Positions 16,382 through 21,263 of a stretch of 64,000 nucleotides of DNA are shown one piece after another (position 1 is the stretch's first letter; each line of letters opens with the position of its first letter). The notes under the pieces were generated by a model. The model saw only the letters and a program-made list of their open reading frames with translations. It was not told where the DNA came from and ran no database searches. A program made the position numbers and the translations under genes. Origin of the DNA: Patescibacteria group bacterium. GTDB lineage: Bacteria; Patescibacteriota; Patescibacteriia; Magasanikbacterales; GWA2-37-8. Location: assembly GCA_028688375.1 (NCBI GenBank), contig JAQTYG010000002.1:3841-67840 (forward strand), read 5' to 3'.

Positions 16382-17005
16382 CTAATAATTTTTTTCTAAG
16401 ATCATCAATTTCGTTTCTTCTTGTGGCAAATCTTTTTTCTTGATGATAAATTTTTTGTCGGTCGCTTCCGGCTTGAGGCCGAGGGTCTTGATAAAATCGC
16501 TCACCGGGTCGGCTTTCGGGTCGGTGTCGCATTGAAAAGCGATGGGAATGACAATGCGCGGTTCCAGCGCGGTGACCGTGGCGGCCGCGTCTTCGGCGGA
16601 AAGCGTTTTATTTTTTTCTCCGCCGACCGGGATGAATAATATATCCGGACTGCCGAGTTTGGCGATGGTTTCCGTGTTCATTTTTTTATTCAAGCGTCCG
16701 AGGTGAACGATGTTCAAACTTTCCGAACCGATTTTAAAAACTACGGTGTCGTCCGGTCCGGGCATGGCGTAAATCATGGTGTCTTTCACTTCACATTCGC
16801 CGGGGGTGTCAATCACAAATGGGCCTTGGCTAAGAGTAACGGCGTTGGTATCGCCGGCGGAAAACAGGGCCACCTGCGGGCTGAAGCTGCGCGGGAAGTC
16901 GCCTTTTTCCGGGCGATAAGGGTCGATTAAAATAACCACGTCCTCGTCTTTGAGATTTTTGGTTTGCAGTTTTACGCAGGTTTGTCCGAGCCAGTTTAAA
17001 TGCAT
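16382..17005 (-). CDS. MBL-fold metallo-hydrolase
   Basis: 207 aa, beta-lactamase-fold pattern (HLNWLGQTCVKL..., DTPG, HLGRL). Confidence 0.55.
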   Translation of the reverse strand: MHLNWLGQTCVKLQTKNLKDEDVVILIDPYRPEKGDFPRSFSPQVALFSAGDTNAVTLSQGPFVIDTPGECEVKDTMIYAMPGPDDTVVFKIGSESLNIVHLGRLNKKMNTETIAKLGSPDILFIPVGGEKNKTLSAEDAAATVTALEPRIVIPIAFQCDTDPKADPVSDFIKTLGLKPEATDKKFIIKKKDLPQEETKLMILEKNY

Positions 17006-17286: not shown

Positions 17287-17315
17287 TTGACAAAAAGGCA
17301 AAAATGTGCTATACT
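17287..17315 (+). promoter_or_regulatory. sigma70 promoter, near-duplicate of 7896-7924
   Basis: ttgacaaaaaggcaaaaatgtgctatact. Confidence 0.6.
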
Positions 17316-17410
17316 ATATTATTCTTTTACAAACTCCAGTCCCGCATGGTGCGGGACGGAAAACCCGGCCGCGGGGAACAGCGGCAGAAAGAAAACAGGA
17401 GGAAAGGTCC

Positions 17411-18136
17411 ATGACAAACCATGGCACGGTCCCCCAGAATCAGTTCGAAGAGTTCCTGGCCGCCCTCATCGTGGCTCTACCGCAGATGACGCCGGAGCAG
17501 ATGCAGAAGTTCATCCGGCTCTCGACCAAGACCAAGAGGAAGAAGCTCCGTGAGCTCTTCGGCACGACCGACACCGAGGTTTGGCGCGAGGAGTGGACGA
17601 AGTTCTACCTCGAGGTCTTCAACCTCGCGGTGGACCTGACGAACGTCGTCCTGCCCACCGAGGTGGAGGAGTTCGCCTGGCTGACGGTTCTGGCCAAGGA
17701 GCTCGGCGACACGCCGCTCAACACGGCCATGGTCGCTGCCAGGAAGCTCTTCAAGGGCAAGGTCTGGCAGTACTACGACGACCTGGACAAGGATGTCACC
17801 GTCAACGACCGCGACCTGAAGAACGGCTCCTACGCCATCCGCATCCGGGCCAGGGTGGAGGCCGACGAGGAGAACAAGGGCCTCTCGGCCAACCAGATCG
17901 CCGAGCGTAAGCTCGTGACGATGACGCTCCTGGAGCGCATCGTGCTGGAGCTGTTCTACTTCTGGAAGACCGGGAAGCACCTGGACATCCAGAACGTGAC
18001 GCTCTGCAGCGGCTCGCGCAGCTCGGATGGCCGCGTCCCGCGCTGCGACTTGTTTGGCGCTGGCCACTTCTTCGTCGACGACTGCCGCCCCGGCTGCGCC
18101 CGCGTCTACTTGCGGGCTCGTGTCGCAGTTTTGTAA
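17411..18136 (+). CDS. DGR target protein (GC-rich, about 64% GC), variable region at C-terminus
   Basis: SD aggaggaaagg then ATG at 17411; last about 42 codons form the VR copy of the TR/VR pair. Confidence 0.6.
   Translation: MTNHGTVPQNQFEEFLAALIVALPQMTPEQMQKFIRLSTKTKRKKLRELFGTTDTEVWREEWTKFYLEVFNLAVDLTNVVLPTEVEEFAWLTVLAKELGDTPLNTAMVAARKLFKGKVWQYYDDLDKDVTVNDRDLKNGSYAIRIRARVEADEENKGLSANQIAERKLVTMTLLERIVLELFYFWKTGKHLDIQNVTLCSGSRSSDGRVPRCDLFGAGHFFVDDCRPGCARVYLRARVAVL
18008..18131 (+). repeat. DGR variable repeat (VR)
   Basis: about 124-bp imperfect direct repeat of 18405-18528; differences concentrated where the other copy has adenine. Confidence 0.7.
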
Positions 18137-18169
18137 CTCGTTCCTTTAACTCTTATCTCACCGGTTCGT

Positions 18170-18215
18170 TCTCTCGCCCGTTTGTGTGTCTTGCACAGAC
18201 GGGCGTTTTCTTTTA
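18170..18215 (+). terminator. hairpin/terminator downstream of VR
   Basis: gcccgtttgtgtgtcttgcacagacgggc followed by gttttctttt. Confidence 0.55.
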
Positions 18216-18404
18216 AAATACTTTTGGCTAATACAACCAATCTCACGCGATGAGGTAATGGTTTGCCACAAATTGAAACTGCTTAATCGATTTTAGAGAG
18301 TATTCGTGAAATGTCGCGATGGCTCCAAACAACGCCTGCTTCGCGGGTCAACGCAGATAATTTTGTTAAAGATTATCGGTGATTTTTGATGAAATCGGTT
18401 AATA

Positions 18405-18528
18405 AGCGGCTCGCGCAACTCGGATGGCGACGTCCCGCGCTGCGACTTGGGTGGCGATGGCCACTTCCACGTCTACGGCTGCAGCCCCGACAACGCCAAC
18501 GACAACTTGCGGGCTCGTGTCGAAGTTT
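18405..18528 (+). repeat. DGR template repeat (TR)
   Basis: adenine-rich copy (AAC codons gac aac gcc aac gac aac in target frame); followed by hairpin aaaaaggagcttg-cgt-caagctcctttt. Confidence 0.7.
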
Positions 18529-18544
18529 CAAAAAGGAGCTTGCG

Positions 18545-18826
18545 TCAAGCTCCTTTTGTTTCCAAGTATCTTATCCAGCCGCTTGCCATTTTGGAAATTT
18601 CTACCAACTGGTTTTCAATATCCAGATATTTATTCGTGTTGATTATATCCAGTTCATTTTCCAGCCGAATCAGCCGCTTTAATATTTCTATTTCAATTTT
18701 TATTTTTCGCAAAATCGGAATTTTTGTCGCGCCGCCGAGCAGGGCGGCTTCAATGGAAAAGCCGAGAATGTCCAGGCCAAACTGTTCTATTTTCAAATGC
18801 AATCCGTGTCTGTCTTTTTTCGGCAC
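18545..18826 (-). CDS. Avd-like four-helix-bundle protein (accessory variability determinant / 23S rRNA IVS-protein family), opposite strand
   Basis: C-terminal RLENELDIINTNKYLDIENQLVEISKMASGWIRYL matches the NELETQL...KMLNGLIRSL signature; only 93 aa. Confidence 0.45.
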   Translation of the reverse strand: MPKKDRHGLHLKIEQFGLDILGFSIEAALLGGATKIPILRKIKIEIEILKRLIRLENELDIINTNKYLDIENQLVEISKMASGWIRYLETKGA

Positions 18827-18878
18827 GTTTTTGCCGAGGACATAAATATTCCTGTATAACTCCGTTATCTTATGAACA

Positions 18879-19898
18879 ATGGGGATAGAAATTGCGTCGG
18901 GGGGGGGGTTGCTTGATTGTATCGGCCATAATTTTTTTGATAAAATTATTTCTTTTGGTAATTTATTTCGTGCCTGGCGCGAATTTAAACGCGGGAAGAC
19001 GGGTAAAAACGACGTCAGAAAATTTTATTATTCATTGGAAGATAATTTATTTGAGTTGCGACGTGATTTATTAGAGCACCGCTACCAACCGGACAAGTAT
19101 GGCTTTTTCTATGTCCGCGACCCTAAATTGCGGCCGATTCACAAGGCCTCGGTCCGCGACCGGGTTTTGTTTCAAGCCGTGTTCCGTTTATTGTATCATA
19201 TTTTTGACCGGCATTTTATTTTTGATTCATATTCTTGCCGATTCGGCAAAGGCACGCATGCCGGCGTGTGGCGTTTGGAGCAATTCGTCCGACGGGCGAG
19301 CGCGAATTATTCAAGGCCGGTATTTGCCCTAAAGTGCGATGTGCAAAAATTCTTTTATAGCATTGACCATGATATTTTATTTGATTTGTTAAGGCGAAAG
19401 GTTGGCGACCCCAACACGCTATGGTTGATTGACAAAATAATAGACAGTTTTGAAATTGAACCGGGCAAGGGTCTGCCTCTCGGCAACGTAACCAGCCAGT
19501 TGTTTGCTAATATTTATTTGAATGAATTGGATCAATGGGTGAAACATGTTTTGCGGCGAAAATATTATTTGCGGTATTGCGATGATTTTGTGATTTTGGG
19601 GGATAGTGTCGCTGATTTACGAGCGTTGATTGAACCGGTTAATGATTTTTTAAAAGAAAAATTAAAATTGAACTTGCATCCGCGGAAAGTGGAAATCAGA
19701 AAATTATCGCAGGGGATTGATTTTCTGGGATATGTTGTTTTGTCCCGTCATATTGTACTGCGAACGAAAACAAAAAAGAGAATGTTTAGAAAGGTGGCAA
19801 ATTGTCCGTCAAGCCAGTCGTTGCAGTCGTATTTGGGAATGTTGAAACACGGCAATAATTTCAATCTGTATAATAAGATAAAGCGTTTATTTGGTTAA
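18879..19898 (+). CDS. DGR-type reverse transcriptase
   Basis: RT motif C RYCDDFVILG (YxDD) and DGR-diagnostic LGNVTSQLFANIYLNELD; 339 aa. Confidence 0.85.
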   Translation: MGIEIASGGGLLDCIGHNFFDKIISFGNLFRAWREFKRGKTGKNDVRKFYYSLEDNLFELRRDLLEHRYQPDKYGFFYVRDPKLRPIHKASVRDRVLFQAVFRLLYHIFDRHFIFDSYSCRFGKGTHAGVWRLEQFVRRASANYSRPVFALKCDVQKFFYSIDHDILFDLLRRKVGDPNTLWLIDKIIDSFEIEPGKGLPLGNVTSQLFANIYLNELDQWVKHVLRRKYYLRYCDDFVILGDSVADLRALIEPVNDFLKEKLKLNLHPRKVEIRKLSQGIDFLGYVVLSRHIVLRTKTKKRMFRKVANCPSSQSLQSYLGMLKHGNNFNLYNKIKRLFG

Positions 19899-19907
19899 AT
19901 GGGCCTA

Positions 19908-19936
19908 TTGACAATAAACTCACAATAGGTTATACT
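19908..19936 (+). promoter_or_regulatory. sigma70 promoter for rpsA (TTGACA-17-TATACT)
   Basis: ttgacaataaactcacaataggttatact; 130-nt structured leader precedes rpsA. Confidence 0.55.
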
Positions 19937-20069
19937 GTTTTCACAATCAGTTAATCAAATCCGGCCCGATTTAGTGGCTGGACCCATGAAGTGCCGCGTG
20001 CGAAGTCGCGAAAGCGACGAAGCTATACGCGGTTACCCAAATGGATAAGCGATTCTTTTTTGTTTTTAT

Positions 20070-21263
20070 ATGTCAGACAACACACAGGACTTCAAGAAGC
20101 TGCTCGAAGAGCATCTGATGAATTTTCCCAAGGTCAACGATATCGTTAAAGGCAAAGTGATTTCTGTGGACAAAGGGGAAATCCGTATTGACGTGGAAAA
20201 TTTAACCACGGCGATTGTGCGCGGGCGCGAAATGTTTTCCGAATCGCGCGAATACGCCGGCCTTAAACCGGGCGACGAAGTGGAAGGCACGGTCATTGAT
20301 TTAGAAAATGAAAACGGTGAAATGGAACTCTCGTTCCGCATTGCCGGTATGCAGAGGGTTTGGGACAATGCCAGAAAGTGGATGTCGCAAGGTTTGACCC
20401 TCAAAGCCAAAATCCTTTCCGCCAACAAAGGCGGTTTGATGATGCAGGTGGGCCCGTTGGCCGGTTTTATGCCGGTCTCGCAACTCAACCCGGATCATTA
20501 TCCGCGAGTGGCCGGTGGCGACAAGAACCGCATTTTGGAAAAATTACTAGAAATGGTCGGCCAGGAGTTTGAAGTGAAAGCGATTGACGTGGATGAGAAA
20601 GAAGAAAAATTAATCGTCTCGGAAAAAGCGGTTTGGGAAGACGCCCAAAAAGCCGTGCTTGAGGCCTACAAAGTGGGCGACATCGTGGAAGGCGAAGTTA
20701 GCGCCATTACTTCCTTCGGCGTGTTCCTGCGCTTCGGCGAGGGGCTGGAGGGCTTGGTGCATATTTCCGAAATCGCCTGGCAGAGAATTGACCACCCGAA
20801 AGATTTGCTCAAAGTGGGCGACAAAGTCCGCGCGCAAATTATTCAGCTGGATCACTCCAAAATTTATCTGTCCATCAAACGATTGGTGGATGACCCGTGG
20901 AAAAAAGTGAAAGATAAATACAAGGTGGGGGAGACGGTGAAAGGCAAAATTTTGAAAGTGGAACCGTTCGGCCTGATGGTCAGCCTGGACAAAGAAATCC
21001 ACGGCCTGGCACACATCTCCGAATTGTCCGACGAGCCGATTGCCAACATTCATGACAAATTCAAAATTGGCGACACTCTGGACTTTGCCGTGGTCTCGCT
21101 CGAGCCGGCCGAACACCGTTTGGGCCTGCGCGTGGCCGGAGTAAAAGGCAAGGCCGCGCGAAAGGCCACCGCCACCGCCACCGCAGAAGCGGGGCAGGCA
21201 GAAGCGGGGCAGGTTGAAGAGAAAAAGGAAGAAACGGTAGCGGAAGAGAAAAAAGAAGAGTAA
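20070..21263 (+). CDS. rpsA: 30S ribosomal protein S1
   Basis: four S1 domains, Lys/Glu-rich tail; tail contains ATATAEAGQAEAGQ segment shared with ORF 23675-23977. Confidence 0.85.
   Translation: MSDNTQDFKKLLEEHLMNFPKVNDIVKGKVISVDKGEIRIDVENLTTAIVRGREMFSESREYAGLKPGDEVEGTVIDLENENGEMELSFRIAGMQRVWDNARKWMSQGLTLKAKILSANKGGLMMQVGPLAGFMPVSQLNPDHYPRVAGGDKNRILEKLLEMVGQEFEVKAIDVDEKEEKLIVSEKAVWEDAQKAVLEAYKVGDIVEGEVSAITSFGVFLRFGEGLEGLVHISEIAWQRIDHPKDLLKVGDKVRAQIIQLDHSKIYLSIKRLVDDPWKKVKDKYKVGETVKGKILKVEPFGLMVSLDKEIHGLAHISELSDEPIANIHDKFKIGDTLDFAVVSLEPAEHRLGLRVAGVKGKAARKATATATAEAGQAEAGQVEEKKEETVAEEKKEE

Follow-up and report, generated by a model that had tools for sequence, protein, structure and literature searches.

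A template repeat that has probably lost its central adenines in a diversity-generating retroelement of a Patescibacteria bacterium

Positions 17287-19898 of a 64,000-nucleotide stretch of DNA from a Patescibacteria group bacterium of the Magasanikbacterales (GenBank assembly GCA_028688375.1, contig JAQTYG010000002.1; the whole stretch is called the window below) carry what had been recognised, from the letters alone, as a diversity-generating retroelement (DGR). A target gene ends in a variable repeat (VR), a non-coding template repeat (TR) follows, and a gene for a DGR-type reverse transcriptase (RT) lies further downstream. The question raised by this locus is that of its mismatches. In nearly all genuine DGRs at least 75% of the TR/VR mismatches fall at adenines of the TR, with few clusters below this value (Roux et al., PMC8144416), and here, measured with the window's own TR, the proportion is 68% (13 of 19). 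The original prediction had suggested a system that is decaying or atypically error-prone. Comparison with a sister strain fully resolves this anomaly, and places the fault in the template.

The repeat pair and the template of a sister strain

A repeat scan followed by gapless alignment placed the VR at 18008-18131 (+) and the TR at 18405-18528 (+), two copies of 124 nt, without gap and 397 nt apart, exactly where the original prediction had put them. The VR forms, as proposed, the last ~42 codons of the target open reading frame (ORF) 17411-18136, and the codon strings that had been quoted, gac aac gcc aac gac aac in the TR against ggc tgc gcc cgc gtc tac in the VR, were found again. The hand count of 22 mismatches was too high. 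There are 19, with an adenine in the TR at 13 of them rather than 15 and another base at six rather than seven; the pattern is nevertheless real, and the VR does have A at a single mismatched site. The adenine bias persists in the rigorous alignment, TR adenines being substituted at 13 of 21 positions and other bases at 6 of 103 (Fisher p = 2.6e-8). All 19 mismatches occupy codon positions 1 or 2 of the target ORF, and none position 3. The GC-rich block CTTGCGGGCTCGTGTCG, reported at the 3′ end of both copies, is present there, at 18109 and 18506, and nowhere else in the 64-kb window. Its VR copy (18109-18125, +), which resembles an initiation of mutagenic homing (IMH) site, is identical to 18506-18522 of the TR; VR and TR diverge 5 nt beyond these 17 nt, and their downstream flanks agree, by eye, at 9 of 21 positions. 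The hairpins noted after both copies were also recovered, at 18175-18205 (44 nt past the VR) and 18535-18553 (6 nt past the TR).

The TR of the window was then set among those of 31 related TR/VR pairs, 32 TRs in all. The relatives have 27 to 38 adenines per 120 nt (median 35), the window 20, the fewest of the 32, and the relatives' TR/VR mismatches fall at A in a median of 91% of cases, many pairs reaching 100%. TRs of the family are rich in AAC in the target frame. Translated in this frame, the related TRs read SRNSDGNVPNVNWNDDKFNVNWYNPDNANDNLRARAEVS and the window TR reads SRNSDGDVPRCDLGGDGHFHVYGCSPDNANDNLRARVEVS, that is, a canonical 3′ end and a VR-like middle.

An exact-protein look-up with the accessory variability determinant (avd) of the locus yielded two independent Logan contigs from near-identical strains, L090 (SRR22315509) and L089 (SRR22315506). 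The L090 contig spans the 3′ end of the target gene, the TR, avd and the start of the RT gene, and its TR is canonical and A-rich. Over 904 nt outside the repeats, 7 SNPs (single-nucleotide polymorphisms) separate it from the window, so that the flanks are 99.2% identical. The two TRs differ at 14 positions, all of them within a patch of 56 nt, 18429-18484 (+), in which the window has lost 13 adenines to other bases and shows one T>G change at 18477. At the rate of the flanks, drift would have produced 0.96 differences in the TR (P = 2.7e-12), and the concentration on adenines, 13 of the 14, is likewise improbable by chance (P = 5e-7). The losses are clustered: 13 of the 20 adenines inside the patch are changed (65%), against 0 of 14 outside it, and the relatives show this same fraction for one round of mutagenesis.

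When the window VR is compared with the canonical TR of L090 instead of its own, 26 mismatches are found, 25 of them at A. The remaining site is 18477, where a T/G polymorphism separates the two TRs and where each VR has the allele of its own TR, G in the case of the window. All 19 mismatches between the window's TR and VR fall on adenine sites of the canonical TR (P = 2e-11). The present VR of the window was thus written from a canonical template, before the centre of the TR was replaced. The VRs of the two strains differ from each other at 22 sites, 20 of which are TR adenines; since their flanks are 99.2% identical, homing must have been very recent in at least one of the two lineages.

The same result is obtained with a more distant reference. 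L082, the closest relative (target protein 75% identical), has a canonical A-rich TR in register with that of the window and was used as a proxy for the ancestor. It has A at the same 13 positions where the window has lost one. None of the 88 positions that are ancestrally other than A differs between TR and VR of the window, and 11 substitutions of the window TR relative to L082 are copied in the window VR. The six mismatches with a non-A base in the window TR all correspond to A in the canonical TRs of both L090 and L082, which identifies their cause as loss of adenines from the TR rather than mutagenesis of other bases. The suggestion of an atypically error-prone system is therefore mistaken. 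Decay is a partly apt description: the template is damaged, and the RT gene of a related strain is frameshifted. The frameshift is that of L089, where one additional G (G6, against G5 at 19593-19597 of the window) truncates the RT just after YCDDFVILG, leaving a protein called as 242 aa. Among closely related strains the element is thus found intact and canonical, with its template corrupted, or with its RT broken.

Three other loci of the family, L011, L012 and L079, also have fewer than 75% of their TR/VR mismatches at A. L011 retains only a remnant of avd and no RT, and the RT of L079 is split. These loci may represent further erosion of templates, or errors of gapless alignment.

Origin of the patch and rival explanations

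We consider it likely that the locus is a chromosomal DGR of the type found in the Candidate Phyla Radiation (CPR), with architecture B3, and that the patch in its TR was installed in a single event after the VR had been written. The patch would have arrived at once, either as mutagenised cDNA or by conversion with a VR allele as donor, and would have removed about 40% of the adenines of the template, narrowing future diversification. A copy of the present VR can be ruled out as its source. Of the 13 sites of adenine loss, 7 have the same base in the patch as in the window VR and 5 the same as in the unrelated L090 VR; the two VRs themselves agree at 7 of the 13, so that patch-to-VR matches resemble VR-to-VR matches and the patch behaves as a third, independent allele. 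It also has residues typical of VRs of the family, Gly at codon 15 and Cys at codon 24, which favours as putative donor a selected VR allele, from a sister chromosome or from another cell. The observed A-to-G preference of 34% could produce similar coincidences of residues.

Several points weigh against this scenario. The patch and the present VR differ at 10 positions, 6 of them non-A, which makes simple VR-to-TR conversion on one chromosome a misfit. A full-length cDNA should have mutated the 3′ third of the TR as well, and no adenine is changed there. Only a single assembled contig shows the corrupted TR. As to the element itself, the match of its avd to the NF033474 model stays under the curated cut-off of 80 bits; the hairpin after the VR lies 44 nt away, while the DGR of Bordetella phage BPP-1 requires such an element within 24 bp (PMC3240598). 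The ends of the transcript, the priming and the homing would follow from conservation and from the BPP-1 model.

In BPP-1, in work from 2008 attributed to Guo et al., replacement of IMH* by IMH reportedly led the TR itself to gain adenine-specific substitutions. The window differs from that experiment in that the downstream flank of its TR is still unlike that of the VR, only an internal patch is affected and the 3′ third is spared; standard IMH-directed homing into the TR is thus a misfit too.

The alternative that survives best is that the patch is a chimera of assembly, reads from VR alleles of the population having been threaded into the TR of a genome whose real template is canonical, as in L090. 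TR and VR are indeed near-identical repeats, VRs vary in the population, and the Gly and Cys residues make the patch look like a typical VR allele; that it was met in a single contig also speaks for this view. The assembler would, however, have had to switch twice between TR and VR allele, over shared sequence of at most 23 nt on the left (18406-18428) and only 5 nt on the right (18485-18489), unless the 3′ adenines of the VR allele were all unmutated. Moreover, the L089 contig, an independent, k-mer-based assembly, stops at exactly 18485, where the patch has its right edge. A break at this place is expected if the SRR22315506 reads hold two TR alleles at 18484. We therefore regard a chimera as unlikely, and the lesion of the TR as probably real.

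Slow decay is far less credible. On this view the element is dead, its TR is losing adenines by neutral point mutation, and the non-A mismatches are drift. The window TR is the poorest in adenines of the family, a related strain has the RT frameshift described above, and the window RT departs from the consensus of 31 relatives at 2 of the 112 columns conserved to 90% or more, with F220W and P289S as unusual substitutions. Against drift stand the excess of TR differences over the flank rate, their near-restriction to adenines and their confinement to 56 nt; the RT, avd and all 33 base pairs of the RNA leader described below are intact, and the VRs of the two strains, differing almost only at TR adenines, bear witness to recent homing.

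An RT that mutates non-adenine template positions as well is, in our estimate, marginally less probable still. It would account directly for the 6 of 19 mismatches with a non-A base in the window TR, and a few genuine DGR clusters do have less than 75% of their mismatches at A (Roux et al., PMC8144416). Yet all six sites are A in both canonical TRs, TR and VR agree at all 88 positions that were ancestrally other than A, and in relatives with near-identical RT motifs the median proportion of mismatches at A is 91%. That the locus is no DGR at all, but a group II intron, retron or defence RT beside an unrelated repeat, deserves practically no weight: the best NCBIfam match of the RT is a group II RT/maturase model (TIGR04416), but its 141.7 bits are far under the 300-bit cut-off, the match to BPP-1 Brt reaches 2e-45 against ~1e-18 for group II or retron-type RTs, and the SQ motif, Avd, the adenine-biased TR/VR pair and a C-type-lectin target are kept together as a cassette in ~40 loci.

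RNA elements around the template repeat

The spacer of ~270 nt between the stop codon of the target gene and the TR is conserved above the level of the proteins, with blocks that are invariant in 31 loci. Abutting the TR on its 5′ side, at 18224-18404 (+), an alignment of 30 loci (A4) delineates a structured RNA leader of ~180 nt with 33 predicted consensus pairs in three main helices: H1 (18235-18244 with 18252-18263), H2 (18283-18294 with 18391-18402), which closes the domain 3 nt before the TR, and H3 (18356-18364 with 18369-18377). Compensatory changes are found in 27 of the pairs. The proportion of paired cells is 91%, against 35-55% when the partners are slid, and double-change cells number 185, against 30-46; none of 500 shuffles reaches the observed values. 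All 33 pairs form in the window copy. The invariant single-stranded blocks are GGCTAATACAA, TTTGCC, GAAACTGCTT, AAC.CAG and CGGTGA, and the RNA has no match in Rfam 15. A promoter scan placed a -10-like box, TAAAAT, at 18213-18218 (+), where it could serve a leader-TR transcript; a TAnn[AT]T box is present at most 16 nt upstream of a conserved GGCTAAT block in 14 of 18 loci.

On the other side, the TR is followed at 18530-18557 by an A-tract, a GC-rich stem of 8 bp (12 bp with its A/T extension) and a T-tract, the hairpin proper being 18535-18553. The 55 nt past the TR fold far better than shuffled sequences (median z -4.5) in every one of the 29 related cassettes examined. Most of these hairpins have 10-15 bp and start ~8 nt past the TR, and their stem sequences are unrelated between loci. 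The stop codon of the convergent avd lies inside the hairpin of the window, which looks like a bidirectional terminator shared with avd. A stem-loop for Avd binding or for priming is another possible role, by analogy. In addition, the 3′ end of the TR, GAAGTTTC (18522-18529), can pair with GAAATTTC (18587-18594), ~65 nt downstream and antisense to the avd codons E-I-S. Of 23 loci, 16 are compatible with this pairing, and 4 of 6 non-T cases are compensated. Compensatory changes occur in L021, L022, L038 and L060 and mismatches in others, and we make no claim of a long-range helix.

Beyond the VR, the element TGTAACTCGTTCCTTTAACTCTT (18132-18160, +) directly abuts the repeat and is kept in the window, L090, L082 and L083, with the clade consensus TaacccTt..cTtt...CTtt.acCCTT. 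We propose it as a candidate for the VR-specific part of the homing site. The next element is the hairpin at 18175-18205 (+), which ends in a run of T; in the relatives a hairpin stands at a median of 44 nt past the VR, the very distance found in the window. Relative to L090 its pairing is kept by a compensatory change (18178 C>T with 18202 G>A), and relative to L082 and L083 through multiple changes. We take it as the terminator of the target gene and possibly also the hairpin of the homing site.

From these conserved features, leader, TR and hairpin would together make a self-contained DGR RNA. We infer that H2 is analogous to the cPRT-stop duplex of BPP-1, and the 3′ hairpin to an Avd-binding or priming element. 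A dedicated transcript would start near the conserved -10 box at ~18213, cross the ~180-nt leader and the 124-nt TR, and end at the hairpin 18535-18553. A complex of RT and Avd would then reverse-transcribe the TR, misincorporating opposite adenines, and the cDNA would take the place of the VR with which the lectin-fold target gene ends. The direction of transfer would be set by the identical GC-rich block and the VR-specific sequence downstream of it.

This arrangement departs from that of BPP-1, where the RNA required comprises 20 nt upstream and 140 nt downstream of the TR (10.1101/2023.10.23.563531). The structured part is there the 140-nt Sp region, 3′ of the TR; in the window it is the leader of ~180 nt that precedes the TR, and past the repeat stands only a hairpin. 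Structured non-coding RNA flanking the TR of a DGR is known also from the RT-10 motif and the BPP-1 Sp RNA (Weinberg et al. 2017, PMC5737381; Handa et al.). These RNAs lie 3′ of the TR, unlike the window RNA, whose TR-proximal segment pairs upstream and not downstream; a helix abuts the 5′ end of the TR in the window, as the cPRT-stop duplex does in BPP-1. The survey of Handa et al. covered only 40 nt upstream of the TR, in non-CPR phyla (10.1101/2023.10.23.563531), and Wu et al. (PMC5758913) make no mention of RNA structure or of a covarying 5′ leader. In the literature consulted we found no earlier description of the leader RNA or of the template lesion. We put forward tentatively, at somewhat less than even chances, that the template RNA of B3 DGRs has its own promoter, a covarying 5′ scaffold and a 3′ terminator hairpin, unlike that of BPP-1, and that the window records a natural self-overwriting of the template. 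If so, the closing helix at the 5′ end of the TR may act as a stop for reverse transcription, and the 3′ hairpin could bind Avd or give a snap-back primer.

Genes of the cassette, their surroundings and what the probable lesion means

The RT gene (18879-19898, +; RVT_1, E = 2e-21) has the motifs announced for it, RYCDDFVILG and LGNVTSQLFANIYLNELD, the QG that other RTs have in motif 4 being replaced by SQ. Its affinity, which the original prediction had proposed to check, is with BPP-1 Brt rather than with retron or group II RTs in a similarity search: the best PDB match is 8ub7_A (2.3e-45, residues 17-320), the sequence of which is 100% identical to brt of BPP-1, and group II RTs follow at 1e-17 to 1e-18. 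The retron model gives 52 bits for a cut-off of 235, and Rfam scans found neither group II intron RNA nor retron RNA. Exact-protein look-ups with the RT, using either start codon, returned no further independent contigs.

The TR had been described as an intergenic copy ~350 nt upstream of the RT. The interval is not empty, as it holds avd on the reverse strand (18545-18880, -), a gene of 111 aa with an apparent ATT start. The 111-aa form, begun at ATT 18880, matches PF22296 (bAvd-like) with 51.8 bits for a cut-off of 40, over profile positions 3-106 of 107. The match of avd to NF033474 (DivGenRetAVD) has E = 1.8e-11. The ORF of 93 aa that had been listed matches both models without the first 20 profile positions, and the frame is open upstream of its GTG at 18826. 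ATT, found at the aligned start in 12 loci of the clade, and TTG, found in 10, are the usual start codons of this gene, and the ATT of the window is thus normal. A truncated pseudogene is ruled out by the open frame past GTG, the clade-typical start and the score of the 111-aa form above the Pfam threshold. Compared with PDB sequences, avd found no match.

At the head-to-head junction of avd and RT stands a run of ten G (18899-18908), kept across the clade and readable as 'PPP' in the minus frame. In L090 this run has one extra G, which would shift an RT frame begun at ATG 18879. The run is probably non-coding for both genes and part of both 5′ untranslated regions. Its conservation together with its different length in L090 implies that the RT starts at TTG 18909, which is probably the true start, and the run may be a Shine-Dalgarno-like element for the RT.

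The target gene (17411-18136, +) encodes a variable protein of 241 aa with a helical N-terminus and a domain of the C-type-lectin/formylglycine-generating-enzyme (FGE) fold, resembling TvpA and Mtd. The fold that the original prediction had asked to look for was thus found, the VR being the C-terminal part of the domain. Identity with Treponema denticola TvpA, Thermus TaqVP and the FGE subtype is only 7-14%, and the window protein is much smaller than proteins of the TvpA/TaqVP type. It has no recognisable Pfam match, FGE-sulfatase and DUF1566 included, no transmembrane domain and, on inspection of the sequence, no evident signal peptide. Upstream, a promoter-like site, TTGACA-17-TATACT (17287-17315, +), matches the consensus at 11 of 12 positions, with TG before the -10 box; consensus match is all that designates it. 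Target genes are GC-richer than their own RT genes, by at least 8 points in 31 of 33 related loci (medians 0.52 and 0.36), and the window shows the same trend, with 0.63 for its target gene and 0.41 for its RT gene.

Related loci, 80 in all, were retrieved with an alignment of the target family (a 14-sequence subset, alignment A1 being too divergent), and all come from CPR-type metagenome-assembled genomes (MAGs). In about 40 of the 80 the cassette recurs with its order and orientation unchanged, and avd and RT stand head to head with only a few bases between them. The layout of the window, target (+), TR 18405-18528 (+), avd 18880-18545 (-) and RT (+) from 18879 or 18909, is that of architecture B3, defined as TR-(avd)-RT with avd on the reverse strand, to which 90% of the CPR set of Wu et al. 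2018 belongs (PMC5758913). A local rearrangement that inverted avd is ruled out by its conservation in ~40 loci and by the published architecture. In Roux et al. 2021 the DGRs of CPR bacteria form a clade of their own, DGR clade 2 (PMC8144416). Host group, gene order and strand of avd are the same in the window as in the published CPR DGRs (PMC5758913, PMC8144416), whose targets are likewise described as having no recognisable Pfam or transmembrane domain; the window differs from them by its adenine-depleted TR allele and by its mismatches at A, under 75%. Compared with BPP-1, where the order is mtd-avd-TR-brt, avd is inverted and head to head with RT, and the element is chromosomal rather than phage-borne. 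These comparisons support the identification of the locus as a DGR of a kind already known from CPR bacteria, and the element itself is an ordinary member of a well-surveyed CPR clade (PMC5758913, PMC8144416).

For about half of the 80 target-family loci (L001, L004 and ~35 others) no RT, avd or TR lies closer than 6 kb; these loci could be orphan targets, or remote targets of a DGR elsewhere. One Magasanikbacteria contig has two target paralogs ~77 kb apart. Paralog P0040 (loci L087 and L088, same MAG) was considered as a remote target of the window TR and rejected, its VR being only 47% identical. A metagenome scan produced one locus, L081, on a contig that ends before any TR.

Two neighbouring regions may be mentioned. 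Between a gene for a protein of the metallo-beta-lactamase fold (16382-17005, -) and the target promoter, the segment 17040-17160 contains TTGTCATTCC(C/G) twice, in both cases with a short GC-rich palindrome behind it; the two copies look like a dispersed intergenic repeat. Past the RT, a strong promoter-like site, again TTGACA-17-TATACT, and a GC-rich leader of ~130 nt (19908-20069) precede the gene for ribosomal protein S1 (20070-21263); this leader belongs to no Rfam family at the gathering threshold.

A TR/VR pair under the cut-off of 75% at A can thus still be a genuine, adenine-specific DGR whose template is damaged, and adenine-bias filters in pipelines would discard or misread such elements. 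The lesion, if real, is a natural case of template corruption, and bears on how a TR is protected from its own product and on how DGRs decay. The CPR clade is the largest uncultured DGR clade, one in which the Sp region of BPP-1 has no obvious counterpart; the 5′ leader and 3′ hairpin, present in every cassette examined, lead to testable predictions on how RT and Avd would recognise the template RNA of these bacteria and prime its reverse transcription.

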